This document shows positions 11,429-38,672 of a stretch of DNA of 41,330 nucleotides, one piece after another. The position numbers and the translations under genes are program-made. The stretch comes from Promethearchaeota archaeon (GTDB lineage Archaea; Asgardarchaeota; Lokiarchaeia; Sigyniarchaeales; SOKP01). The notes beneath the pieces were generated by a model. It did not search any database. It was not told the DNA's origin and saw only the letters and a program-made list of their open reading frames with translations. Location of the stretch: the NCBI GenBank assembly GCA_016839745.1, contig JAEOTS010000179.1, positions 1-41,330 on the forward strand. Reading direction: 5' to 3'. Position 1 is the first letter of the stretch, and each line of letters begins with the position of its first letter.

Positions 11429-13699
11429 TTGTCAGAAATTAAGATTTTTGTTGATGTAAGCGAAGGTACCTCGGATAAAGTAGTTATCTGTCAAGAAAAT
11501 GCTGATAAATTGGGGACTAAAAACGGAGCTTCAATTGAAGTTCATAACCCAGATAACGGAAAAAAAGCAACTGCAGTTATAGAAATTTCTAATATGGTAC
11601 TAGATTTTGCTGGTCAAGTTTCTAAAAACATTGTCGATTCGCTGGATTTTATGGGTGTTGAGTTAATTCTTCGACCTATGAGTGCTGCTGGATTACTCAC
11701 CCCTACATTACAAATTCCGAAAGTTCCAAAGGTAGCACCAGTCGCTCCTCCTGCCACTTCACCATCTAAAACAAAACTAACGCCTTTACCTACAAAACCT
11801 CCTCAATTGACGCCTTCTAGACCAACACCTCAACCCCTCCCAGTATCATCCCCTCCACAACCAGTTTCTGGACATGTTCCACTCCCAACTCCACAACCTG
11901 AGGCTACACCCACGCCCCAATTAATACCTAAACAAACACCTACTCCCGTTCAAATACCCAAACCTACTCCTCCACCACAACCAACTATGGCCCCCGCACC
12001 ACAATTATCTCCTACACCCTCCCCCCCAACTCCAACACCGCTACCTCAAATCCCACCACCTCAAAGGAGTCAACCCCCCGTGAGACAAATCCCAATACCA
12101 ACTCCCGGACAGGATTATGGTGCTCCCGCGGCTCCAGCAGATCCATACCCAAATAGAATTGATGTGAACATGTTAAGTAGTCAAAAAAATGGGATTGTCC
12201 TAACTCCTATTGTAGACGATTCCGTTGAAGGAGGACGCGTCAAATTAAGTAGTACGGTTGTTCAGCAATTAGGATTAGGGCAAGGGATGTTAATCGGATG
12301 GGAAGATCCACTCACACGTGCTTTAGGATCTGCTAGGATTGATCAAGGTATGATCAGTCCTTCTGAGATTAGGATGAGTAGAGACACTAAAGAAGACACG
12401 AATATTTTCGCCGAACAATTAGCAGTGTTTTCCACTGAACCTCCAATTCAAAAAGCTTCTGAGCTCATGTTAGAAGTACAATCGCAACCAAATTTAATGG
12501 GATACGCACTGGTAAGTCCAAGAACACAACACTCTCTCTCACTTGCTCAAGACAACATTCTTGCTTTTGAAGACGAACTGACGGGAGCTATCGGAGCAGG
12601 CAAAGTAGAAATATTAGAATCTGTACCTGATAACACTATCATTATTGATAGTGAAATCTTGGAAGCGTCAGGAATCGGAAGTTTTGAAGTTAAGGTATAT
12701 AAAAATCTTCGACCGATAATTCCTTTACAAAATATATCACTCGGGATTTCACCAATCTCCGGTGAAAATATGTGGGAAATAATTAGTACTGCTCGACAGA
12801 ATGTTGCCTCACTTAAAGGGTGGTTAGCTAATTATGTAATTTTCAAGGGAATAAAGTTAAGATGGAGTGCCGTAAATATAGCATGCTCAATCCTTTCAAC
12901 TACTCCAGACTTAACTGGTGATATTTTAGCACAAGTTAATGAAAATACTGCTATAAATCTAAGCCCAACCGGTCTAGTCCCGTTCAATGCTATATTAATA
13001 ATTGATATTAGCCGCTCAATGATGGCTCGAGATGTGTTCGTGACTAATATCGCTCCTGCGATTGAAGGTATTAAAGCGGCTATGGAATCACGGGAAATTC
13101 AAGAATTTTTAAAACATTTCAAAGCGGGTATTAATATCCCTAGAAGAATTTCGGCAGCTTTTGCAGCAGTTCTTTTCTTAAGTGAAAAGGTTGGACGAGG
13201 ATTTGGGGAGAAAGTCTCTGTTATTCGATTCGCAGACGAAACTCAAATACTTCCTTTTGGGAACAGCTATTATATGGATTCAGCCAGCGGAAAAAAAGGA
13301 GTTTTAGAAGATGCGGCACGCATGATTGTAGATCGCATAGGAAATGCATACGGTCAAAGCACAAATATGGGACAAGCAATGATTAAAGCTCACCAAGTAT
13401 TGACGGAATTTGATAAAATGAGTCCTGGGAATCCGCAACCCACAATGATTATTCTCCTTACAGATGGAATTCCAACCGATGGAGATGATTTTCTTAAAAC
13501 GATCAAAATATTTGCAGAAAATCCAAATGTAGTAATATACATCGTTGGTCTCGGGAATCCTGATGATGAAATGATGACACGAGCAGCAGCTTTGTGCGGT
13601 GGAGAATATTTCAAACCAGAAGATGCTGGAGAACTATTGATATGGTATTCCAAAAGAGCTCGAGATTTAACTGTTAAGATGAAAGCTCATAAAGGATAA
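11429..13699 (+). CDS. vWA-domain protein with Cdc48-N-like (double-psi beta-barrel) repeats and a proline-rich linker
   Basis: C-terminal vWA with MIDAS residues (IIDISRS, STNMGQAM, ILLTDG, YIVGLG, GGEYF). Three segments resemble the Cdc48 N1 barrel (e.g. GRVKLSSTVVQQLGLGQG...EIRMSRDT) and one resembles N2 (...ILSTTP...QVNENTAINL). No Walker motifs. Confidence 0.8.
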   Translation: MSEIKIFVDVSEGTSDKVVICQENADKLGTKNGASIEVHNPDNGKKATAVIEISNMVLDFAGQVSKNIVDSLDFMGVELILRPMSAAGLLTPTLQIPKVPKVAPVAPPATSPSKTKLTPLPTKPPQLTPSRPTPQPLPVSSPPQPVSGHVPLPTPQPEATPTPQLIPKQTPTPVQIPKPTPPPQPTMAPAPQLSPTPSPPTPTPLPQIPPPQRSQPPVRQIPIPTPGQDYGAPAAPADPYPNRIDVNMLSSQKNGIVLTPIVDDSVEGGRVKLSSTVVQQLGLGQGMLIGWEDPLTRALGSARIDQGMISPSEIRMSRDTKEDTNIFAEQLAVFSTEPPIQKASELMLEVQSQPNLMGYALVSPRTQHSLSLAQDNILAFEDELTGAIGAGKVEILESVPDNTIIIDSEILEASGIGSFEVKVYKNLRPIIPLQNISLGISPISGENMWEIISTARQNVASLKGWLANYVIFKGIKLRWSAVNIACSILSTTPDLTGDILAQVNENTAINLSPTGLVPFNAILIIDISRSMMARDVFVTNIAPAIEGIKAAMESREIQEFLKHFKAGINIPRRISAAFAAVLFLSEKVGRGFGEKVSVIRFADETQILPFGNSYYMDSASGKKGVLEDAARMIVDRIGNAYGQSTNMGQAMIKAHQVLTEFDKMSPGNPQPTMIILLTDGIPTDGDDFLKTIKIFAENPNVVIYIVGLGNPDDEMMTRAAALCGGEYFKPEDAGELLIWYSKRARDLTVKMKAHKG
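11700..12150 (+). repeat. Low-complexity Pro/Thr/Gln-rich coding repeat (PTP, PQP, PPQP units)
   Basis: C-rich stretch in otherwise AT-rich DNA, encoding about 150 aa dominated by P, T and Q. Confidence 0.85.
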
Positions 13700-16792: not shown

Positions 16793-17989
16793 ATGTCAAA
16801 TAAGGATAAGAATCAATTACTTCCATTAATTCTAGACGTTGGTAGTGATAATTTCAGACTAGGATGGGCTGGAGGAGATTATCCCGATCTTATTGCTCCA
16901 AGCGTCTATGTTGATATCAATGATTATTTATTCAGTTCTAATATAATTGCATCTGACACGATAGATGGTCTAGAAGATATATTTTTAGATACAAATAATC
17001 AAACTCATTTAGTTGGTCACAATGCGTTAAAGTATCAAAATATTTTAAAAGTTCGTGAGTTTAGTAAAGAGAGTAATTATAATATTCTTTTAAAATTTTT
17101 TTATCACTATTATCACCACTTAAATATTAAAGAGGATTTCCAATTTAAGCAACCAATTATAATTATCACTCCATTCTATAAATCAGAGTTAGAAAAAACA
17201 AAATTTCAAGAAATATTCTTTAATTCTTTAAATTTTCCTTATCTCCTTTTTTTACCAGAAACCCAGGCTATTTTATCAACGTTACAAAAATCCAGCGGGG
17301 TAATCGTTAATATTGGAGAGTCTTACACCTATATATCAACAATTTTTCACGGTTTTACCAACATAATGGCTAGAGACATGTTTCCAATAACAGGATCCGA
17401 TATAACTAAGTATTTTTTAAACTTAATTTTAAGCAAAATTAGTGCAACTAAAAATATTTACCTTGATAAAGCAATAGCAAAAGAGATCAAAGAAAAAATT
17501 TCTTTATGTGTACTTGATCCTAATGGAGAAAAAAAGAGAGTAAAGGAAGGCTTAACAAAATATGATCGGGTAGTCGATCTGCCAGACGGTAGTAAATTAA
17601 ATCTAAATTCAGAACGGTTTTTATTGTCTGAGCCTTTATTTGACCCGAAAATTATTCATGTAGATTACATGAGTATAGCTGAAGCAATATCAAAAGCAGT
17701 AAAATCATGGGATAGAGAAAATTGGGAAGAACTTCTGGCAAATGTTGTTCTTTCGGGGGGAAGCAGCCTTATATCTGGTTTGAGTGAAAGATTAGAAGTA
17801 GAACTACAAAAACATTTTTCAGAAAAACTAAAAAACAAAATCAAAGTAGTAGCGGCATCAGGTAGAGAAAATATGAGCTGGATTGGAGCCTCAGTGTTAT
17901 ATTCAAAAGACCAATTAAAAAAAGGCTGGATAAGCAATCCCAATCTGAACGAGCCTGATCAGCAACAAGAAGATCAATCAACATCTTAA
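16793..17989 (+). CDS. Actin-related protein (divergent Asgard actin family)
   Basis: LILDVGSDNFRLGWAGGDYP (phosphate-1), GVIVNIGESYT (phosphate-2), ITGSDIT, KEIKEK, LPDG, ERF..SEPLFDP, NVVLSGGSS (adenosine) and SWIGASVL are all collinear with actin. Confidence 0.93.
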   Translation: MSNKDKNQLLPLILDVGSDNFRLGWAGGDYPDLIAPSVYVDINDYLFSSNIIASDTIDGLEDIFLDTNNQTHLVGHNALKYQNILKVREFSKESNYNILLKFFYHYYHHLNIKEDFQFKQPIIIITPFYKSELEKTKFQEIFFNSLNFPYLLFLPETQAILSTLQKSSGVIVNIGESYTYISTIFHGFTNIMARDMFPITGSDITKYFLNLILSKISATKNIYLDKAIAKEIKEKISLCVLDPNGEKKRVKEGLTKYDRVVDLPDGSKLNLNSERFLLSEPLFDPKIIHVDYMSIAEAISKAVKSWDRENWEELLANVVLSGGSSLISGLSERLEVELQKHFSEKLKNKIKVVAASGRENMSWIGASVLYSKDQLKKGWISNPNLNEPDQQQEDQSTS

Positions 17990-18020: not shown

Positions 18021-20609
18021 ATGGTTATTAACTTAAAAACAAAAAACGATTTTTTAGTAGAATTTCAGCAAAAAATCATACAAGGAAGAAAGTTGTTACA
18101 TTCAGCAAATCATCTCTGGGCTGATCGTTTACTAACTGATTTATATTTTGAAATCGAAAAAACAGAATGGCTCAATATCCAAAAAAAACACCAACTAATT
18201 ATGATTATATCAAATTCATGGTGGATATATATTAATTCTTTGATTCACAGAACTGAAGAAGGAATTGATATTGATTTCATAAGATATATTGATGGTTACA
18301 AACGTTTCTTTTCGTTCTTATCCAAATTAGATGATTTTTATATGTTAAATAACTTCGCAACTACCCTATTGAAATCGTTTATTAAAATGGATTCTCTATC
18401 TCAAACGGGTATTACGAAATTCATTAATTCTTTCTGTGTTAAAGTAAAGGAAAGGGGGGAATACATCAAGCTTATTGAATTACAAATGGTTTTGATGTAT
18501 TTAAGAAAATCCGTTATCCCACAAGAATTTTTTCACCTAAGTATGGAAGTGTTAGGTAGAACAATATATAAGTTAGACCCGAGTAAACGAGCGTTATTTC
18601 TTTATGTATTTATCGAAAATGTTAATAATCATTATCAGCTTATAGAGAATTCCGAGGATTTCGTTAAAGAAATGAATAAGATATTAGTAAATCGAATCCC
18701 TGGATATTTAAAGAATGAATTTAGTAATATTGGGAAAATCACGATTAACGAAAGAAATTTTAGCACAATTGTAGGAGAGTTAGAGGAACTCATTTATTAC
18801 ATGAACAACATTGGAGAATATGCTTGGATTATAATTTTAATTAAAAATTTATATTCTAAAATTCATGCTTATCAATCCTATGGGGATGCTGTTACTTATA
18901 TTAGGAAATTTATAGATTTCGCGATAACTAGGAATAGATTTGAAATAGCTTTTGATATCTATGATTTTTTAGAAGACTTATTTTTGTATCAAACTGATCT
19001 TGGATATGATAACATTTTAATCGAATTATGGGTTGAGGCTTGTAAGAAATTCGTAGAAATGAAGGAAAAGAAATATCTTTTGCAATCTCTGGAGAAGTTA
19101 AACACTCATTTAAAAATTCCTCAAACTAACGCGCAAATATATCATTTCTTTTATACTTGTAATTTCTTATGGCAATTTAAGTCACTATTCTTCTCGTTAG
19201 AGCAAAAAGATTTCTGGAGAATGATGTTTTATCGTGCCATATATGAGGAAAAAGATTACGATTTAGCTCAAAAAATATTACCTTACTTGGATAAGAATTT
19301 GGTAGTGTTGATTAACAACCCATTATTGTTACATAACAACACCAAAGATCTTGTAAGAGATATCTATTCATTTGGAGAAGATGATGATATCTTCGCAGGA
19401 TTTGAGGAGGGCTTTGTAATAAAGCAAATGGTATTTAGAATAAACACTGAAGGGCTAATATCTGTTCGAATGATATCTCACGAAAATAAAATAGTCGAAG
19501 GAAAAATTCATGATGAATATTGGAACGATGCTCAAATAATCGATTTATATAATGATATCTTCTCAGATAGTCTTGTAAAAACCTATAATTTTACGGTTAA
19601 CGAATTTGGCAGATTGTTGTATATTTTTCTCCCTAAAAAAATACGAACATTTCTAAAACAGTTTGAAATAAAATCTTTAAACACCATCCCTGAAGTTTAT
19701 TTTATATTAGACGAAATGACAATTCCCTTTGAATTAATTTATGACAATAATTTTTTCTTATTAAAGTACTCCATTGGTTATATAATTGGAGAGCCTCCAC
19801 TAGGGGGTATCACATTTGGCTACGAACCTGAAGAACAGAAGGATAAGTTAGAGATACAAAATAAATATAATGTTTTGATAATAGAATGCACGAATAGTTC
19901 AGAGCCTATTAGATGGAACGAAGAAATTAAAGCTAAAGAACTTATTTTCCCTTTCGAGGCGGGAATCAATGAGTTTAACTACATAACCGAGTTTTTCAAT
20001 AATCGTGAAGAAGTAGAACAAATTACTATACTAGTGGGTCCTGATTCTTCTCGAGATAATATTTTATCACACATAAAAAGTGGGTCAAACCATATCATCC
20101 ATTTTGTCGGAAATATCTTTTATTCTAAATGGAATCCCCGGGATAGCTTTTTTCTAACGAATGACAACGAGATTATCACTTTTAATGATGTTAACAATTC
20201 AATTCAATCAAATCAATCAGGTTTACGCCCTTTCCTATTTTTTAATTCTCAAATTTACGATACTCAAGGACAGAAGCTAAAAAATGTATTAAGAACTTTT
20301 GGAGAAATTGTAGAAAATTTCGATTACGAAAGAATTATCGGTATTATGTCCAGAAATTATCCTATTTTTGATAATGAAACTAATGAAATAATAGCGAATT
20401 TTTACAGTAATTTGTTTAACCAACATAGTCAAGGGATTTCTCTACTGAAAGCTCGCCAAGCATGTATGGCAAATAAAATGACCAAACTTGTAGAACAAAA
20501 ATTTAAAGATTTGTCTGCTGAAGAGGGTACCAAAAGCATTGATTTAGAAAGCTCGGTGGCAATATCTAGTTTTATTTTATATGGAAAGCCTTGGCGAAAA
20601 TTAAGTTAA
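18021..20609 (+). CDS. Alpha-helical (TPR-like) protein with a C-terminal CHAT (caspase-like) domain, catalytic dyad substituted
   Basis: CHAT motifs in order: FGRLLY, IPFELIYD, L.G..SSRDNIL, HIIHFVGN (normally HFAGHG), FLFFNSQ (normally LVFLNAC), YPIFD...FY..L...G.SLLKAR, FILYGKP. Confidence 0.8.
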   Translation: MVINLKTKNDFLVEFQQKIIQGRKLLHSANHLWADRLLTDLYFEIEKTEWLNIQKKHQLIMIISNSWWIYINSLIHRTEEGIDIDFIRYIDGYKRFFSFLSKLDDFYMLNNFATTLLKSFIKMDSLSQTGITKFINSFCVKVKERGEYIKLIELQMVLMYLRKSVIPQEFFHLSMEVLGRTIYKLDPSKRALFLYVFIENVNNHYQLIENSEDFVKEMNKILVNRIPGYLKNEFSNIGKITINERNFSTIVGELEELIYYMNNIGEYAWIIILIKNLYSKIHAYQSYGDAVTYIRKFIDFAITRNRFEIAFDIYDFLEDLFLYQTDLGYDNILIELWVEACKKFVEMKEKKYLLQSLEKLNTHLKIPQTNAQIYHFFYTCNFLWQFKSLFFSLEQKDFWRMMFYRAIYEEKDYDLAQKILPYLDKNLVVLINNPLLLHNNTKDLVRDIYSFGEDDDIFAGFEEGFVIKQMVFRINTEGLISVRMISHENKIVEGKIHDEYWNDAQIIDLYNDIFSDSLVKTYNFTVNEFGRLLYIFLPKKIRTFLKQFEIKSLNTIPEVYFILDEMTIPFELIYDNNFFLLKYSIGYIIGEPPLGGITFGYEPEEQKDKLEIQNKYNVLIIECTNSSEPIRWNEEIKAKELIFPFEAGINEFNYITEFFNNREEVEQITILVGPDSSRDNILSHIKSGSNHIIHFVGNIFYSKWNPRDSFFLTNDNEIITFNDVNNSIQSNQSGLRPFLFFNSQIYDTQGQKLKNVLRTFGEIVENFDYERIIGIMSRNYPIFDNETNEIIANFYSNLFNQHSQGISLLKARQACMANKMTKLVEQKFKDLSAEEGTKSIDLESSVAISSFILYGKPWRKLS

Positions 20610-21287: not shown

Positions 21288-23444
21288 ATGGCAGAAACAA
21301 TTGATTCTAAACAAATATCCAAATTATTTGGTTTAGGTTCAGAAATTTATAGTAAGGCTGCGAAGTTTCTAACACAACAAGGAAGTTCGAAGAATATAGA
21401 ATTTAAAAAAAAATACTATTTATGGGAATCAGTTTTTAAAAATATATATGGTAAAGAAATCAATGATGCCCTTTTTCTTAAACATTCTTACTTCGCTTCA
21501 ATTCTTAAGACACTTATACTAGTTAAAGCTAGTTCTCTAAAAGAAGTAAGCCTTATTGAAAAAGTTGATTTACCAGAATTAGCTTTTTTTTTCTGCCCTG
21601 ATTTAGAGCGTGATGTAATTAACGAAATTCAGAGGGTACTAAAAAATTCTCGCTTTTCTCCTCAAGATGTCTTTCAAGAATTATACCAACAATTTTTTCT
21701 TGTAATTACAAGACATAAAATAGGAGAATTTTACACTCCGTCGAATCTTGTTAAAGAAATGATTAATGCTACATATAAAGTCGGAATGAAAACCTTAGAT
21801 CCTTCTTGTGGTTCTGGGATTTTTTTAATAGAGCTCATTATTAAAATCTTAAAATCCAATGTTAAAAAATCATCAAAGTTTGAAGCGATTGAAAGGATTT
21901 TTGGATTTGATATCAATCCGTTGGCAACACTAACGGCGAAAATAAATATTTTATTATTACTTATTGAAGATTACGAGGTAGAGATAGGCAAATTCCCTAA
22001 AATCAATATTTTTTTAGTTGACGCTCTTTTTCCTAAGCAATACGAAAACAATTTAGGAATAACTTTATCAGAACTTTATAATTCGTTTGATTTAATCATT
22101 GGTAACCCACCTTGGTTAACTTATAAGGATATTATTAGCAAAAAGTATCAAGTTAAAATTCGAACATTATCGGGAACTCTAGGAATTAAACCTCCAAGTC
22201 AATATATTACACACATCGAGCTAGCATCGATTTTTTTTTACGCCATACCCTTATCCTACTTAAAAGTGGGAGGAAATATCTTTTTTGTACTTACTAAAAG
22301 CGTTTTAAATGGAGATCATTGCTTCAAGTTCCGTGCGTTTTCAGTTTTCAATAGAATTGAAATATGGGATTTTCCAAATAGCAATATCTTTAATGTAGAG
22401 CACATCTGTTTAAAAGCGGAATATATAGGGAAAAACACTAAAATTCAAATTTCCAAAAAATACCCAATTAAGACTAAAATTTACGATAGCGATCTTGTTC
22501 TTCAAAAAACAACTAAATACTCTAGTTTAGAATTTGATGAAAGCGGAGCGAAGATTATTCTACCCGAAGAAGAAATAGAATTCTTAGATTCGCTCTCCCA
22601 GAGCGAGTATAAATCCAAGTTCTTTCAGGGCGCGACTTTAGTCCCCAGATCTTTAGTTTTTTTTAAAACTCAAAAGATAGAAGGGAATTATCTATATATT
22701 TCTTCTGATCCTGAAGCTATTTCACGAATTAAGAAAAAATGGAAATACACCTTTCAGAATGTAAAAATTGAAAACAAATTTCAGTTTAAGACTTTTTTAA
22801 ATAAAGATTTAATCCCCTTTTATATAAAACAATTCAAAAAGGTATTTTTACCCATTAATAGAGATTTTAAATTGGACAAAAATCATCTTCGAGAAAACCC
22901 ACATGCGTTGGAATTTTATGATAAACTCAATTTATTTTACCAGGAAAACAAAAAAGAAACGAGCGCTATTAAGACTCTTTTTTTAAATTTAAATTACTGG
23001 AATAAGTTGACTAAGCAGGTCAAAAATAAGCAGTATATTGTAGTATACAACGCAAGCGGCTCACGTTTAAAATCGGCAGTTATCGATAATGAAGAAAAAA
23101 CAATCATTATCTGTTCAGAAGATTATTACTATTCTACGGACTCACAAAACGAGGCATATTATTTATCGGGTATTTTAAACTCTCCAATCCTTTCTAAAAA
23201 TATAAAATTAATTAAATCCAGCAGGCACATACATAAAAGACCGTTCTCTTTCCCTATCCCAATGTATGATCACGAGAATGAACTTCACAGAAAAATGGCA
23301 AAAAAAAGTCAAAAATATCATTCTGTTGTACAAGATTTAGTACATAACAATCCAAAGATAACATCTGAGAAAGTAAGAACGTTTATTACTCAAAAATTAA
23401 TTAAGTTGGATAACTTAACGAAAGAAGTTGTTTTTAAGATTTAA
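21288..23444 (+). CDS. N6-adenine DNA methyltransferase (type IIG/Eco57I-like MTase-TRD organisation)
   Basis: GEFYTP, motif I LDPSCGSGIF, FGFDINP, motif IV IIGNPPW, and C-terminal TRD-like YYLSGILNS. Confidence 0.88.
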   Translation: MAETIDSKQISKLFGLGSEIYSKAAKFLTQQGSSKNIEFKKKYYLWESVFKNIYGKEINDALFLKHSYFASILKTLILVKASSLKEVSLIEKVDLPELAFFFCPDLERDVINEIQRVLKNSRFSPQDVFQELYQQFFLVITRHKIGEFYTPSNLVKEMINATYKVGMKTLDPSCGSGIFLIELIIKILKSNVKKSSKFEAIERIFGFDINPLATLTAKINILLLLIEDYEVEIGKFPKINIFLVDALFPKQYENNLGITLSELYNSFDLIIGNPPWLTYKDIISKKYQVKIRTLSGTLGIKPPSQYITHIELASIFFYAIPLSYLKVGGNIFFVLTKSVLNGDHCFKFRAFSVFNRIEIWDFPNSNIFNVEHICLKAEYIGKNTKIQISKKYPIKTKIYDSDLVLQKTTKYSSLEFDESGAKIILPEEEIEFLDSLSQSEYKSKFFQGATLVPRSLVFFKTQKIEGNYLYISSDPEAISRIKKKWKYTFQNVKIENKFQFKTFLNKDLIPFYIKQFKKVFLPINRDFKLDKNHLRENPHALEFYDKLNLFYQENKKETSAIKTLFLNLNYWNKLTKQVKNKQYIVVYNASGSRLKSAVIDNEEKTIIICSEDYYYSTDSQNEAYYLSGILNSPILSKNIKLIKSSRHIHKRPFSFPIPMYDHENELHRKMAKKSQKYHSVVQDLVHNNPKITSEKVRTFITQKLIKLDNLTKEVVFKI

Positions 23445-23574: not shown

Positions 23575-24723
23575 TTGAATTTTACAGAATTAGGAATTAA
23601 CGATCATAACGTTAATGAGTTAAGAAGAAATAAAATTGTTAAACCCACACCTGTCCAACTAAAGGCTATTCCTTTAATTTTAAAGGGCCAAAATATTATG
23701 GCTCAAGCTAGAACGGGTAGTGGTAAAACATTAGCTTTTGTACTTCCAATAATCGAAAGCTTGAATTACACGCGTAATGAAGCTATAATTTTAGTCCCAA
23801 CTAGGGAACTAGCAACCCAAATATACGAAGTAATAAGAGATTTAGGAAATCCAAAAGTAAAGGCGCTTCCAATTTATGGTGGCGTTTCGATAAATAATCA
23901 AATAACAAAATTAGAAAATGGCATAAACATTGTTATCGGAACTCCAGGAAGAATAATCGATTTGTATAAGAGGAAAAAGCTGAGATTAAACGATATGCGA
24001 TTTGTTGTCGTTGATGAAGCTGATAGAATGTTTGACATGGGGTTTACTCCCGATGTGAAGTATATTTTAGATCAGATTCATAGCGAATACCAATTCATGC
24101 TTTTCTCTGCTACTTTTGACAACGGAATTCGAGAATTGGTGAAGAAGTATTCGAAAAATCAATTCAAATTCTTAAATTTAAGTAGAGATAACTTAACTGT
24201 TGGAAATACCAGACAGTTCTATTATATGATTGATCAATACCGTGATAAGTTTAAAACATTCCTCAAGATTCTTAGAAGAGAAAAGGCTACCCACCTTCTT
24301 GTATTCGTTAATACAAAGAAAACAGCTATGTGGTTAAGCAACAAGTTAAAATCGTTAAATAACTTCGATTACAATGTGGATCTTATCTCGGGGGATTTAT
24401 CTCAATATCAGAGAGAAAAGATTCTAAAAGCTTTTAAAGATCATCGGATAAATTTGCTCATCGCAACTGATGTAGCGGCTAGAGGATTAGACATCAATAA
24501 TATTTCTCATGTTTTTAATTACGACATTCCAAAATATCCAGAAAACTATATCCACCGTATTGGAAGGACTTCTCGTATGAATAAACTCGGAGTTGCAATA
24601 ACACTATGTGTAAAGGATGAATATGAATATTTATGCCACATTGAGGGATTGATTGATAAGGAAATTAAATTAAAAACAATATATTCCCCAGAAAGTAATA
24701 AATATCATAATCCGTTTTATTAA
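23575..24723 (+). CDS. DEAD-box RNA helicase
   Basis: Q motif PTPVQ, ARTGSGKT, PTRELA, GTPGR, DEAD, SAT, ARGLD, HRIGRTSR. Confidence 0.96.
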   Translation: MNFTELGINDHNVNELRRNKIVKPTPVQLKAIPLILKGQNIMAQARTGSGKTLAFVLPIIESLNYTRNEAIILVPTRELATQIYEVIRDLGNPKVKALPIYGGVSINNQITKLENGINIVIGTPGRIIDLYKRKKLRLNDMRFVVVDEADRMFDMGFTPDVKYILDQIHSEYQFMLFSATFDNGIRELVKKYSKNQFKFLNLSRDNLTVGNTRQFYYMIDQYRDKFKTFLKILRREKATHLLVFVNTKKTAMWLSNKLKSLNNFDYNVDLISGDLSQYQREKILKAFKDHRINLLIATDVAARGLDINNISHVFNYDIPKYPENYIHRIGRTSRMNKLGVAITLCVKDEYEYLCHIEGLIDKEIKLKTIYSPESNKYHNPFY

Positions 24724-33999: not shown

Positions 34000-34152
34000 A
34001 CTATGCTCATTATTCCTAATTCCTAAGAAAGTTTTTTGTTTATAATGAATAGGTTATCATAAATCTAAGCTAGGAGCCTTTGAGCAAGCGTTTTTTTTCT
34101 AGAAATCTAAAATACCTTTACAATTTTAAATAACCTATTTAAGAGTTTTGAA

Positions 34153-34169
34153 TAGATTGAGTCAATCTA
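34153..34169. promoter_or_regulatory. Perfect palindrome TAGATTGA-G-TCAATCTA, putative operator
   Basis: 8-bp inverted repeat immediately upstream of an AAACAAAC-TTTTTATA BRE/TATA-like element. Further TCAATC half-sites at 34199 and 34225. Confidence 0.6.
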
Positions 34170-34281
34170 AACAAACTTTTTATAGGAGTATTGTTTGATC
34201 AATCGTAATAATAAAGTGTGACTTTCAATCTAATTTAATTAACAATCATCCAATTAAATCCGTAAGAGTTGATTATATTTA

Positions 34282-35958
34282 ATGAGAAAAAGATCGATAT
34301 TATTTATATTAATACTGATAACTTCAGTTATTATTCAATTATTTGGAATTCCGTATCTTGGCATAAAATTTACAGATCATGACTTAGAATTTGATTATGT
34401 TTACAATTGGGACATTACTGGAACGGGAGGATGGTATATAGGTTATACGGAGGCTTTTAGGGCAAATGGCCATTATGAAGTTGATTATAGTGGATCGTCT
34501 GCTAGCGTTTCATGTGAAATTACTTGGACATTTCAGAGTTGGCTTGAAGGATACCTCGAAGAGGATTACGGGGGAACAGATTATTATAGTTTTACTTATT
34601 CATTAATAGATGGACAGTATCTTTCTTTTGGTGATCAAGAGTATGATGCTACCGGTCTAAACATCTGGTTTCACATACCTGGAGGAATTCAAACTAATAC
34701 TTATTCCATGCTTAATGAGACTTATGAATTTGTTGGTGATGGTTTGATTTGGTTAGGACATCTCATGCCATTTACAGGAAAACGATTAACCTCTGCGGGG
34801 CAATATTCAAGAGACGATGTATATGGACAATTTGAAGCTACTTATACAATTGATGAATTTTTTACTCCTGAAGGGTATTTAATTGGAGAGGTATTACACG
34901 AAGAAGATATTGGTTATAGTAGTGGTTATTATTCAGAATTTGTATTGGATTCATACGTATTTATAACATCTTCAAGTTATTTACGTCCATTTTGCATTTG
35001 GATGTATCTCCTAGCCTATTGGAGTCCATTATTATTTTTCGCTATAATTTTTTATATAGTTTATGAACATTATAGATGGAGACCTAGAGTTATAAGAGCA
35101 GAAGGGAAAAAGCAAGAAGTGGTCGTAGAAAGAAAAATGCTAGGAGGATTAGAATTTTCCGTTGATTCTCCTTATTCAGAAATGATCCTTGCATTTCTTT
35201 CCAGAGCAAAAATTCAAGGAAAAACAATCGTTTCTGCTCATAATCAAGAACAGCTTAAAGGAATCGGATTTATTGAACCGAATGGAAAGGTTGGGACGTT
35301 TTTTGGAAAATATTCTGAGGACTTAATATTATATACTAAAGTAAAATATGCCCACGTTGAACTTTCTAGACTCTTTGGTTTTAAAACTATCGAGAAATAT
35401 GATGTGTTTAAGATTGACTACTTACAGGGAATGGAAGTTCATTACGATGCTAATCTAATTGAGCCTGCAACAGCTCAAGATTTAGATGCAATCATGAGAT
35501 TGATTGCTAATGAAGATAGCGGTAAAAAAAAAAAAAAGAATGCAAAATGGGTTATTGAAGCGGCGAAGAGTGATATCATAGTTATCGCAACAGCTTCTCC
35601 TAAGGAAGAATGGGTTAAAGAGATCTTAAAAGAGATCCTCAGAAGAAATTATGAAAAACCAGAAATATGCTTAGACCGAGTACTATTAGGTGTTGGATTT
35701 GCTACTCCAGGAAAAGAAACTGGATGGTTATATGGTCTGTATGTTCATCCTGCTTTCAGAAATAAAGGAATTGGTAGAGCACTAGTAAATGCTCGTATAT
35801 CAATTTTGAAAGAATTAGGATGTAATTCTGTTATAACAGAAATTGCTGAATGGAATAGCCCTGCAAAAAATATTTATGATGATTTTGATGCCCCAAAATT
35901 GGGAACGGTTACTTTATTTGGAACTAAAATGCCTAAAGTAAAGGTGAGACGCTTTTGA
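34282..35958 (+). CDS. Membrane protein: N-terminal signal/TM, aromatic and acidic extracellular domain, second TM, cytoplasmic GNAT acetyltransferase
   Basis: Hydrophobic N-terminus; Y/G/D/E-rich beta-type domain; TM IWMYLLAYWSPLLFFAIIFYIVY followed by RWRPR; GNAT motifs WLYGLYVHPAFRNKGIG and NSPAKNIY. Confidence 0.82.
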   Translation: MRKRSILFILILITSVIIQLFGIPYLGIKFTDHDLEFDYVYNWDITGTGGWYIGYTEAFRANGHYEVDYSGSSASVSCEITWTFQSWLEGYLEEDYGGTDYYSFTYSLIDGQYLSFGDQEYDATGLNIWFHIPGGIQTNTYSMLNETYEFVGDGLIWLGHLMPFTGKRLTSAGQYSRDDVYGQFEATYTIDEFFTPEGYLIGEVLHEEDIGYSSGYYSEFVLDSYVFITSSSYLRPFCIWMYLLAYWSPLLFFAIIFYIVYEHYRWRPRVIRAEGKKQEVVVERKMLGGLEFSVDSPYSEMILAFLSRAKIQGKTIVSAHNQEQLKGIGFIEPNGKVGTFFGKYSEDLILYTKVKYAHVELSRLFGFKTIEKYDVFKIDYLQGMEVHYDANLIEPATAQDLDAIMRLIANEDSGKKKKKNAKWVIEAAKSDIIVIATASPKEEWVKEILKEILRRNYEKPEICLDRVLLGVGFATPGKETGWLYGLYVHPAFRNKGIGRALVNARISILKELGCNSVITEIAEWNSPAKNIYDDFDAPKLGTVTLFGTKMPKVKVRRF

Positions 35959-37130
35959 ATACTTTCGAAAAATTTCTTCATGATTCGATTGATCTAGAAT
36001 TATATTCTGTAAATGCAGAAATATCAGCAATAAATCCACAATTCAAATCACATAAGAAATGGATAAAAGGATACATAGGTCCTGCTACGGCGGAATTACA
36101 CGATATCAAAGAACCAAAACTAAATGCGATAAAAGATGAAAATCGCAACGCAATATTTCCAGAATTTTCAGTCAATATAAATGGTAAAAAATTCTTCTTA
36201 GCTATTAAAGGTTGTGGAGCATATGAAGATATGTATGAAGGAAAATTATTATCACCTCTTCATATACGAAATGCTTGTCGCGATTCTACGTACCTTCATC
36301 TTGTAGATAAATTAACAACAGGTACAGGTTTTATTATGGGCGAATCATGGATGGGAGAAAGCCCATATGGTTGTCAAGGTTTTATTAATGCTTTTGATGA
36401 GTTAGCTTTCTCTAAGTTAGCAAAAATAGATTCCATCAATGGTGCTCACATTTGTCCGGTAATAGGAGTCGTAAAATTACCTCCTGAAATTGAAGAAATG
36501 GCTCGTAAGTTCTTTTGGTTTAGTACTTATAAAGATCATTTTTATCAGGAAATTAGACTTATGCCTTCGAATATTCGATTATACTTTGAATCTTCTCGTC
36601 TAGTTGCTAATCCTAGTTCTTTCTTTTCGTTATTTAACTTAGATACCGAAAAACTTATTGAAAATTTTGAAATCAACTTTATCAAAAGCGGGATAGCGTT
36701 ATTGTCTTTGTTTTCGAGGTCAGCAAAAAAAGAAGGAGATAAAATAACAGGAATTATATATCAAGATGTATGGCTAGATAAAGATTGTGTAGTAGCTCCT
36801 GACGGTACAATTCACTTCGCTGACTTGGAAGGATTGATATGGAAAGCTGTACCTCAAGACAAATTCGCAGAAACTCAAACTAAGGAGTGGGAGAAATTAA
36901 TTTTTGAATTTCTTTTTGCCTTAGTTAAAATAGATTCATATCGTCACCAATTAGAAGGTTCCCAAATGTCTTGGAATAGACAGAGAGAAGAATTAGCACT
37001 TCTCATCCAACTTGCTATAAATCGAGACAGTTTCGCATATTCAAAAAATCAAGAAAAAGATTTATTAATTGTTTTAGGGGGAGCTGAAGTTCCCTCAGTA
37101 GAAATTCCATTACTTGAAATGGTGAATTAA
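35955..37130 (+). CDS. Hypothetical protein with probable kinase-like (SelO-like) fold
   Basis: AIKGCG, RLMPSNIRL and YQDVWLDKD...HFADLE line up in order with SelO LKGxG, RVAPSHLRF and HGVMNTDN...LDYG. 4-nt overlap (TTGA) with the upstream gene. Confidence 0.6.
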   Translation: MNTFEKFLHDSIDLELYSVNAEISAINPQFKSHKKWIKGYIGPATAELHDIKEPKLNAIKDENRNAIFPEFSVNINGKKFFLAIKGCGAYEDMYEGKLLSPLHIRNACRDSTYLHLVDKLTTGTGFIMGESWMGESPYGCQGFINAFDELAFSKLAKIDSINGAHICPVIGVVKLPPEIEEMARKFFWFSTYKDHFYQEIRLMPSNIRLYFESSRLVANPSSFFSLFNLDTEKLIENFEINFIKSGIALLSLFSRSAKKEGDKITGIIYQDVWLDKDCVVAPDGTIHFADLEGLIWKAVPQDKFAETQTKEWEKLIFEFLFALVKIDSYRHQLEGSQMSWNRQREELALLIQLAINRDSFAYSKNQEKDLLIVLGGAEVPSVEIPLLEMVN

Positions 37131-37131
37131 A

Positions 37132-38595
37132 ATGGATTGTAAAAGAGCCTTAGAAATACTAATATCGATTAAAAATAGGATTGATATTCCTTGTTCTTCT
37201 GATGAGATTTCAGATTTATCAAAATTCTCCTTTATTAGCGAATATGGAAAAGAAAATACTATTCTACCAAAGGGAAGCGAGATAGATAGTCTTAAAATGA
37301 ATTATGATCGCCTAAATAGCGAGATTCATGAACTGAATAAGGAGTTATTATCTATAGAAAGAGAATATGAACATTCTTCTCTAGGAAGTAAGTTAGTCAG
37401 ATACTTACAATTTGGAAAAGGAAAAAAGCTGAAATCTCAAATTTCTAAAACGAATAACGAAATAAAAAAGTTGGATACTCAAGTCAGTATTATTAAGGAT
37501 CAAATTTTGAAATTAAATGATCAAAAGCAATCCATTAATCAGGCTATACGGGTCAATGGAAAAAACGTAATCTTAACACCTATAGGAGATAATATGATTG
37601 ATGAGATTGAAGCTCGAGAAAGATTTCTATCAAGGGATTTAAATGACTTAAATGATCTTATTGAGCAACTTGATGAAGAATTCTCTTCACTAATTGATAG
37701 AGTGGGCAATATAATGAAAACAGGATTATTTTCTCCAATTTGGGCAGTTTTTCTGTTAAATTCTAATCTAAATAGACTAGAGAATGCATTTAATTCGATA
37801 TCAAAAAGAGAATATACCTACTCACAAGCAGAGAAGAGAATGATGACACTTTCTATTAATTTTATGAGAAATCCTCAATTAAACAAACCTGATACAAATA
37901 GAGATATCCTAAAAATTGAAAGAAATATGCAATATGAATATCGAAAAGATAATCCTGCCAATGAGATAAGAGAATCTTTGTATGAACATGGTCTAAAGCA
38001 AGATATTATAAAAGCCATTTCAATAATCGGAAGATTATTCTCGAACTGGTCTCTACACCATGGAAGTAAAGCGTTGGGTGATGATTACGTAAAAAATCTA
38101 ATTAAAATCTTTAAGGATCAACCGATAGGTTCTTTAAGTAATAAAGAAGTTGTATATGCTTCATTTGTTATACCCTTTATAGGAGATCTATCAAAATTAA
38201 ACTATTTTAATGATTTGTTGCGCGATATTCCTGAAGGTTCAAAATTCTTTGCATCGGTTTCAGCTTTATTTCCATGGGATGTTAAGGAAACTTGGATGAT
38301 TCTATTAAGGGCAGAAATGAACATCTTACGAGCTCAGAGTGCAAAGTTTATACCTGAATTAATTGAATATGCTCTTATATTAGCAATGAATCCTAAAATC
38401 ATCAGAATTGAAAATAGCTTCTCACAAAGCCAATATGATGAATGGACACAACTAATAATCCCAATTGTCCATCTTTTAGCATATACTTTCTTAGAAAAAG
38501 ATTTAGAAAAATATGTGAGAAAAAGACCTTTAGCGTATATTATATCTCCAAGATATTATCATCATTCTTCTTTACATTATCATGTAATTGGATGA
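37132..38595 (+). CDS. Hypothetical coiled-coil/helical protein with a His/Tyr-rich C-terminus
   Basis: 487 aa, long heptad segments, ends RYYHHSSLHYHVIG; begins 1 nt after the previous stop codon. Confidence 0.8.
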   Translation: MDCKRALEILISIKNRIDIPCSSDEISDLSKFSFISEYGKENTILPKGSEIDSLKMNYDRLNSEIHELNKELLSIEREYEHSSLGSKLVRYLQFGKGKKLKSQISKTNNEIKKLDTQVSIIKDQILKLNDQKQSINQAIRVNGKNVILTPIGDNMIDEIEARERFLSRDLNDLNDLIEQLDEEFSSLIDRVGNIMKTGLFSPIWAVFLLNSNLNRLENAFNSISKREYTYSQAEKRMMTLSINFMRNPQLNKPDTNRDILKIERNMQYEYRKDNPANEIRESLYEHGLKQDIIKAISIIGRLFSNWSLHHGSKALGDDYVKNLIKIFKDQPIGSLSNKEVVYASFVIPFIGDLSKLNYFNDLLRDIPEGSKFFASVSALFPWDVKETWMILLRAEMNILRAQSAKFIPELIEYALILAMNPKIIRIENSFSQSQYDEWTQLIIPIVHLLAYTFLEKDLEKYVRKRPLAYIISPRYYHHSSLHYHVIG

Positions 38596-38672
38596 GACCT
38601 TAATATTAGGGAAATATAAAATTTTGTTTCCAATATCTAAATGAAATTGGAAGATTTCTAAAGAAGATTAGA

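Follow-up and report, generated by a model that had tools for sequence, protein, structure and literature searches.

A mobile archaeal cassette encoding a membrane-anchored GNAT, a SelO-like enzyme and a helical protein with an invariant C-terminal tail

The stretch of DNA analysed here, called the window below, is the 41,330-nt contig JAEOTS010000179.1 of an Asgard archaeon (Promethearchaeota archaeon, assembly GCA_016839745.1), with a G+C content of about 32%. Three genes on its forward strand form a compact cassette: gene 1 (34282–35958), an open reading frame encoding a membrane-anchored GNAT of 558 amino acids; gene 2 (35955–37130), encoding a SelO-like enzyme of 391 amino acids; and gene 3 (37132–38595), encoding a tail-bearing helical protein of 487 amino acids. 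The trio had first been picked out in a reading of the sequence without database searches (the sequence-only reading), which described the genes as translationally coupled, and the coordinates and both junctions match that description exactly. Gene 1 ends in ...CGC TTT TGA and gene 2 begins with a TTG at 35955, giving a 4-nt TTGA overlap, and the TAA of gene 2 is followed by a single base and then by the ATG of gene 3 at 37132. A Shine-Dalgarno-like GGTGA is found 8–12 nt upstream of both internal starts.

The sequence-only reading had proposed that the trio forms a unit with no characterized equivalent, and had named co-occurrence in other genomes beforehand as one of the points on which the proposal could fail. 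To establish its distribution, one genome was scanned for each of 185,579 species. Relatives of gene 2 were found in 267 of these genomes, the family being confined to about that number of archaeal species, and the layout of the module was read in the best 80 of the 267 loci. All the components were present together in 73 of the 73 species loci with enough flanking DNA, and the 7 incomplete loci among the 80 run off contig ends. Two layouts were observed. In the fused layout (38 of the 80 loci; Asgard and Methanomassiliicoccales), ectodomain, transmembrane helix and GNAT are encoded by one gene, which is accompanied by genes 2 and 3. The split layout (35 loci; Thermoplasmata and Bathyarchaeia) comprises four genes, namely gene 2, gene 3, a separate ectodomain-transmembrane protein with a terminal Zn-ribbon and a convergent stand-alone GNAT. 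The corresponding parts of the two layouts are related. The split ectodomain is homologous to that of gene 1 (BLASTP, E 7e-13), with the motifs GTGxxYxGY and R(D/N)DxYGxF in common; the split GNAT is colinear with the whole cytoplasmic part of gene 1, its N-terminal sub-domain included; and the non-Asgard proteins of 490–533 amino acids are homologous to gene 3 (hhalign probability 98.7%, E 2e-16, 410 columns).

Among 400 Asgard genomes, all 30 loci returned by the search contained the trio in the same order, and in at least 10 further assemblies genes 2 and 3 are neighbours according to their NCBI locus tags. The linkage of these genes is far beyond chance, and the neighbourhood search thus found the proposed unit conserved across archaeal phyla. 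No characterized equivalent was found in Pfam, NCBIfam, PADLOC, PDB sequences or the literature, and a literature search retrieved no paper tying SelO-like enzymes to these archaea; in public records, the proteins of the trio are labelled 'hypothetical', 'coiled-coil domain-containing' or 'GNAT family'. The only record among the best 80 loci labelled as bacterial is DASPTR010000040.1 (Candidatus Acidoferrum sp., 8.5-kb contig; L140 in our numbering of loci), whose gene 2 nests among those of Bathyarchaeota and whose upstream flank is unlike the Bathyarchaeota loci. This record may be mis-binned or may represent a real transfer.

The cassette is self-contained, accessory and horizontally mobile. 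It was found in 36 of the 400 Asgard genomes, which all belong to a single taxonomic order, and in 19 of the 41 species of the host genus, and it is missing from several genomes rated 99–100% complete. In the window it is set among housekeeping genes, as the sequence-only reading had stated: gyrA, gyrB, dihydropteroate synthase and a CofE-like ligase on the upstream side, and deoxyhypusine synthase and a pyruvoyl arginine decarboxylase on the downstream side. In two sister species (G256 and G265) the site is empty, the CofE-like gene being an immediate neighbour of deoxyhypusine synthase. An alignment of eight species revealed that a near-identical leader of about 200 nt (34085–34281, forward strand) moves with the cassette, and that about 35–40 nt are kept past the final stop codon as a conserved 3' end (38596–38635, forward strand). 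Past these limits (approximately 34085 and 38635), several species have unrelated DNA, among them G252, G241 and G270/G245 on the upstream side, and in other lineages the neighbours of the cassette differ. A search of its ends for direct or inverted repeats found none that reaches 10 nt and a single inverted match of 9 nt, and no integrase, transposase or other recombinase gene lies next to it. A quick maximum-likelihood tree of gene 2, midpoint-rooted and with long branches, from which no direction or order of events is claimed, places a fused clade (Asgard and Methanomassiliicoccales-type) apart from a split clade (Thermoplasmatota). Bathyarchaeota lie inside the split Thermoplasmatota clade with support of 96–98, which points to transfer between phyla.

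The leader carries a TATA-like CTTTTTATAGG (TTTATATA in relatives) about 100 nt ahead of the ATG of gene 1 and probably acts as the promoter of the cassette. It also contains the palindrome that the sequence-only reading had placed ahead of the trio, a perfect 8+1+8 repeat reading TAGATTGA g TCAATCTA at 34153–34169. The palindrome is real in this genome, and it does not extend to the relatives: the same site in the seven sister species reads TACATTGAGTTAATCTA, with two mismatches and no palindrome, and arms of 8 nt are near the chance level in an AT-rich spacer. Because the site is not palindromic in the sister species, it is probably no conserved operator, and this candidate was set aside, the repeat being perfect only here among the eight species aligned. 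An Rfam search of the leader and cassette gave no match.

Other arrangements were observed at or near the same intergenic site. In a further sister species (G236), a different gene of 306 amino acids (L043:1988–2908), with weak ATP-cone, AAA_18, Zeta-toxin-like and P-loop matches, occupies the place of the cassette, so that the site looks like a hot spot for the insertion of accessory genes. In the two species with empty sites, two tandem deoxyhypusine synthase paralogues, 61–67% identical to the single copy of the window, lie directly beside the CofE-like gene (G256:C63:8621–10646 and G265:C197:11386–13414). The CofE-like matches themselves contain 1–3 in-frame TAA codons (G256:C63:7738–8553, G265:C197:13447–14280 and G236:C1:924–1778), for which alignment overhangs, frameshifts or decayed genes are the candidate causes.

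Hydropathy supports the receptor-like topology attributed to gene 1 from its sequence. An N-terminal signal anchor at residues 5–23 (34294–34350; Kyte-Doolittle 2.65) and a second transmembrane helix at residues 239–257 (34996–35052; Kyte-Doolittle 1.88), whose position is kept in homologues, are predicted to leave about 215 residues outside the cell and about 300 inside. The ectodomain (residues 24–238; 34351–34995), recognizable by its two motifs GTGxxYxGY and R(D/N)DxYGxF, gave no match in Pfam at E up to 5. At the other end of the protein, the GNAT core (residues 393–558; 35458–35955) is intact, as had been anticipated: residues 466–532 match PF00583 (E 2e-12; 47.8 bits against a curated cut-off of 20.7), the acetyl-CoA motif RNKGIG is present at residues 493–498, and R229 and G234 (alignment numbering) are invariant across the GNAT alignment. 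When a profile of the cytoplasmic region was compared with the PDB, the best matches were the N-alpha-acetyltransferases RimI, Naa30 and archaeal Ard1 (E 7e-9 to 3e-5), all confined to the C-terminal ~130 positions (125–258 of the profile). The core is therefore closest to N-alpha-acetyltransferases of the RimI/NatA–NatC type (PF00583), with the acetyl-CoA motif kept, but gene 1 differs from these in the addition of a sub-domain of about 130 residues before the core, a transmembrane helix and the 215-residue ectodomain. The added sub-domain (residues 265–392; 35074–35457), taken for a degenerate GNAT in the sequence-only reading, is conserved, has no Pfam match at E up to 5 and no PDB profile match, and is colinear with the N-terminal half of the stand-alone GNATs of split modules, which have 255–290 amino acids. 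The 51 homologues of gene 1 are all from Asgard archaea and are annotated merely as 'GNAT family N-acetyltransferase'. Gene 1 proteins terminate in a conserved Arg-Arg-x.

Gene 2 had no match in Pfam or NCBIfam at E up to 0.1, and a search of 1.8 billion representative proteins returned only 90 clusters. Its AlphaFold2 model, built from an alignment of 31 sequences, had a predicted local distance difference test score (pLDDT) of 94.3 and a predicted template modelling score (pTM) of 0.92. In Foldseek searches with this model, SelO/YdiU and the NIS synthetases led (E about 2e-4): SelO was the best structural match, and the NIS synthetases were the second-best fold class, aligned over the whole protein, with the GNAT–NIS fusion DfoC among the matches. 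This comparison could have gone against the kinase fold proposed for gene 2 from its sequence; the predicted model agrees with the proposal. The SelO-like motifs reported earlier are present as well, and in the order of SelO. Across 183 unique homologues, the residues R64, K85, G86, E130, W132, Q198, R201, P204, S205, R208, D271, W273, D275, K276, D277, D290 and G293 are invariant. They include those of the KGxG lysine motif K85-G-C-G88 (36207–36218), the four residues R201, P204, S205 and R208 of R201-L-M-P-S-N-I-R208 (36555–36578; 183 of 183), and those of the catalytic-loop equivalent D271-V-W-L-D-K-D277 together with the DFG-like F288-A-D290-L-E-G293 (36765–36833). KGxG and R-x2-P-S-x2-R have the order and spacing of the invariant K107 and R170/S174/R177 of SelO (E. 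coli numbering). In the Pseudomonas syringae enzyme, the counterparts of this lysine and the two arginines of SelO, K113, R176 and R183, clamp the gamma-phosphate of a flipped ATP, and SelO transfers AMP, not phosphate, to protein side chains (PMC8097203). The loop region of gene 2 reads YQDVWLDKD...FADLEG (DVWxDKD...FxDxEG in the family), as against HGVMNTDN...DYG in SelO (invariant H240–N247 and D256-Y-G); compared by eye, Val272 would stand at the position of the HRD Asp, like the Val of the SelO HGV.

An hhalign comparison of gene 2 with a single SelO sequence gave nothing significant, the sole local alignment of the two paired KGCG with KGSG, and PF02696, the family of canonical SelO, was absent by search from the whole host genome. 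Since sequence homology to SelO is not statistically detectable, gene 2 is placed outside PF02696, as a new family with a predicted SelO-like fold. What it has in common with SelO/YdiU/Fmp40 (PF02696; 6eac, 6lna, 6k20, 9jym) is the kinase-like fold and the order of the motifs. The differences are an extra helical insert at approximately residues 100–120, a length of 391 amino acids against about 480, an end (...PLLEMVN) without the C-terminal domain of about 130 residues and the redox Cys/Sec tail (invariant C476 in SelO), and the invariable presence of GNAT and tail-protein genes in its operon. The likeness to the NIS siderophore synthetases IucA/IucC, AcsD, SbnC and DesD and to DfoC (7cbb, 2w02, 5jm8, 5o7o) is one of fold; these enzymes have about 580 amino acids, additional domains and small-molecule substrates, and for gene 2 there was no Pfam match to the NIS family, nor are siderophore genes found nearby. 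A distant gene 2-like protein (E 2e-4; L040:6001–7224) is encoded on an archaeal contig, alone between topoisomerase VI genes and a gene for a transporter of the major facilitator superfamily. Having no GNAT or tail-protein neighbours, it was rejected as a module, and it may represent a branch of the family that is older or arose independently.

Gene 3, with 98 homologues, was modelled by AlphaFold2 with a pLDDT of 82. Its N-terminal module (residues 1–161; 37132–37614) starts with MxCERALEIL and is predicted to contain a short helix-helix-strand element, a coiled-coil hairpin at residues 48–137 and a beta-hairpin with LTPxG. It is followed by an all-helical C-terminal domain (residues 170–464; 37639–38523), marked by PWDxEETW...RAExNILxAQSAKFIPEL, and by a tail at residues 465–487 (38524–38592), RPLAYIISPRYYHHSSLHYHVIG-COOH, the model being disordered over residues 460–487. 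Both the coiled coil and the unusual His/Tyr-containing tail seen in the sequence-only reading were thus recovered. Conservation peaks at the two termini and in the PWDxEETW...RAExNILxAQSAKFIPEL region. Seven positions of the tail are invariant (R465, P466, Y469, P473, H482, H484 and G487), and the terminal Gly is found in 75 of the 75 intact copies examined in 80 species, 70 of which fit the pattern HxH-(1–12 residues)-G at the end; two exceptions to the tail pattern are broken genes. Asgard copies end in S-[SM]-L-H-[YH]-H-x-x-G, and the others have H-P-x-H-x-H followed by a Gly-rich or hydrophobic stretch. The invariant His-x-His...Gly-COOH tail, rather than the coiled coil, is the most telling feature of gene 3. 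Whole-model fold searches, dominated by the coiled-coil hairpin, returned generic hairpins only and matched no known domain. A role of the tail as a membrane anchor, exposing it outside the cell, was rejected on hydropathy: within the last 90 residues, the 19-residue window of highest hydropathy reaches a median Kyte-Doolittle value of 1.15–1.28, no higher than elsewhere in the protein. The N-terminus is strongly conserved too (37132–37161; M-x-C-E-R-A-L-E-I-L in Asgard archaea, MKC or MNC at the start of many others), and it is a candidate acetylation site because the GNAT of gene 1 resembles N-alpha-acetyltransferases.

Taken together, we favour the reading that the cassette serves to modify one dedicated protein tail by AMP transfer, and we hold it tentatively, as a possibility somewhat short of an even chance that draws on sequence conservation and predicted structures. 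Gene 2 would bind ATP in the flipped manner of SelO, and gene 3 would be its dedicated substrate, receiving the AMP on the tail. We infer AMP transfer because both leading fold classes, SelO and NIS, transfer AMP from ATP. The favoured site would be the carboxylate of the terminal glycine of gene 3, giving an acyl-adenylate that could be handed on to a nucleophile; modification of a side chain (Tyr, Ser or His) within the tail is less favoured. NIS synthetases transfer AMP to carboxylates, and the terminal carboxylate is preferred both because this class works with GNATs, as in DfoC, and because a universally conserved last residue would otherwise be hard to explain. Activation of the C-terminal carboxylate appears at least as likely as AMPylation of a side chain, and side-chain AMPylation or UMPylation remains a close rival. 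The GNAT would be kept at the membrane by the ectodomain protein or together with it, and would carry out a second acyl transfer on gene 3 or complete the first; the ectodomain would place or gate the reaction at the cell surface.

Several observations weigh against this reading. The correspondence between the motifs of gene 2 and SelO was read from sequence, without residue-level superposition or ligand; a PDB profile search with gene 2 returned nothing at E up to 10, and hhalign against an alignment of seven SelO sequences gave a probability of only 0.8%. Because the catalytic loop is unlike that of SelO, gene 2 could instead phosphorylate, transfer a different NMP or catalyse some other reaction. 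The terminal Gly may serve in recognition or metal binding (HxH) and not as the reaction site. In its large size and helical structure, gene 3 differs from known protein tags, and the cassette encodes no acceptor, ligase or hydrolase.

Transmembrane signalling, which we consider possible although unlikely, would assign the same proteins to a different task: the ectodomain would sense a cue, the GNAT would acetylate, and the SelO-like enzyme would AMPylate, UMPylate or phosphorylate Tyr, Ser or His of gene 3, the output protein, which would have a winged helix and a coiled coil and might be a transcription factor. This is in agreement with a receptor-like topology that is kept in fused and split forms, with SelO as the best structural match, and with a tail rich in conserved Tyr, Ser and His; the helix-helix-strand and the beta-hairpin with LTPxG around the coiled coil are also compatible with a winged helix. 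However, gene 3 matched no winged-helix or other DNA-binding family in Pfam and no DNA-binding fold in the whole-model searches, and the upstream palindrome is not conserved. The cassette lacks an eraser enzyme, an accessory and horizontally moving cassette without a linked regulon would be unusual for a sensor, and signalling leaves the Gly at the last residue in all 75 copies unexplained.

The terminal glycine would have a direct role in a conjugation system independent of ubiquitin, to which we assign a rather low probability. Here, the kinase-fold enzyme would adenylate the C-terminal glycine of gene 3, and the membrane GNAT, positioned by the ectodomain protein, would pass the C-terminus to an amine acceptor, which could be a protein, a lipid or an envelope component. 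In the ubiquitin-like, ThiS/MoaD/SAMP and Pup systems, a C-terminal Gly or Glu is activated with ATP, and the likeness lies in a dedicated protein with an invariant flexible C-terminus ending in Gly, encoded beside an ATP-using enzyme. In contrast to those tags, gene 3 has 487 amino acids and is all-helical, neither a beta-grasp protein nor a small disordered tag, and carries HxH instead of GG; gene 2 has a kinase fold, neither that of a Rossmann-type E1 nor one like glutamine synthetase, and no E1-type gene was found in the cassette. The Legionella glutamylase SidJ proceeds through an acyl-adenylate. It has a kinase-like fold and performs non-phosphoryl chemistry on a protein carboxylate, a likeness to what is proposed for gene 2, but it is calmodulin-dependent and acts on a side-chain Glu (PMC6858067, PMC8548325). 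SidJ was not among the structural matches of gene 2.

It is improbable, in our estimation, that the enzymes act on a small molecule, a lipid or an envelope component, in amide chemistry of the siderophore type performed by a GNAT with an NIS synthetase, with gene 3 as a scaffold, a regulator or a metal-binding (HxH) accessory. The second place of the NIS class, its alignment over the whole protein and the presence of DfoC among the matches agree with such a role, as do the membrane association of the module and the HxH, a plausible metal ligand. Transporter or precursor-supply genes are nevertheless not consistently linked to the cassette, which has other flanks in each lineage; the closest matches of the GNAT are enzymes that act on proteins (N-alpha-acetyltransferases); and both ends of gene 3 are so extremely conserved as to suggest that gene 3 is itself acted upon. 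The most doubtful reading is that of a system for defence against viruses or for conflict, with a membrane sensor that sets off enzymatic effectors; offered as an alternative from the sequence, it gained no positive support: the patchy distribution, with absences even in genomes rated 100% complete, the cassette-like insertion with empty sites and the transfer between phyla indicated by the gene 2 tree would suit it, but PADLOC 2.0 had no match for genes 1 and 2 and only matches at the coiled-coil level, with E above 0.003, for gene 3, housekeeping genes, not defence islands, surround the cassette here and elsewhere, usual effector domains such as a nuclease, an NADase or a pore-forming domain are absent, and the sequences are highly conserved, unlike fast-evolving defence genes.

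SelO is the textbook 'pseudokinase' that was found to transfer AMP, and its physiological substrates and evolutionary range are still open questions. The cassette presents a separate SelO-like family packaged with what appears to be its own substrate, bearing an invariant and accessible tail, and with a second modifying enzyme, so that three recombinant proteins suffice for a direct test of substrate, site and chemistry. Should the reaction take place at the terminal glycine, the cassette would reveal a new route to the activation of a protein C-terminus that does not involve an E1; should it take place on side chains, genes 2 and 3 would constitute the first AMPylase–substrate pair encoded in an operon in archaea, linked to a membrane ectodomain. 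Were conjugation to prove true, the cassette would represent a new protein-tagging enzymology of archaeal origin that moves between phyla. Its carriers include the Asgard archaea, the closest relatives of eukaryotes, and also the abundant Thermoplasmata and Bathyarchaeia of soils and sediments.

Elsewhere in the window, some additional features were observed. An Asgard actin homologue (PF00022, E 3e-53) is encoded on the forward strand at 16793–17989, 17 kb upstream of the trio, and 31 nt past it begins an open reading frame of 862 amino acids (18021–20609, forward strand) without a Pfam family. At 21288–23444 and 23575–24723 (both on the forward strand), an Eco57I-type N6-adenine methylase-like protein is encoded beside a DEAD-box helicase; the methylase-like gene is the only one in the window resembling restriction-modification genes, and it lies 11 kb from the cassette, with housekeeping genes in between. 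Rfam called a tRNA on the forward strand at 2129–2206 (34.8 bits; model positions 8–63 of 71, spanning 78 nt), and ARAGORN found no tRNA in the window; the call may correspond to an intron-bearing or atypical archaeal tRNA. Finally, the sole G+C-rich stretch of the window (0.40–0.41 against about 0.31) coincides with the gene for a von Willebrand factor type A protein of 756 amino acids (11429–13699, forward strand).

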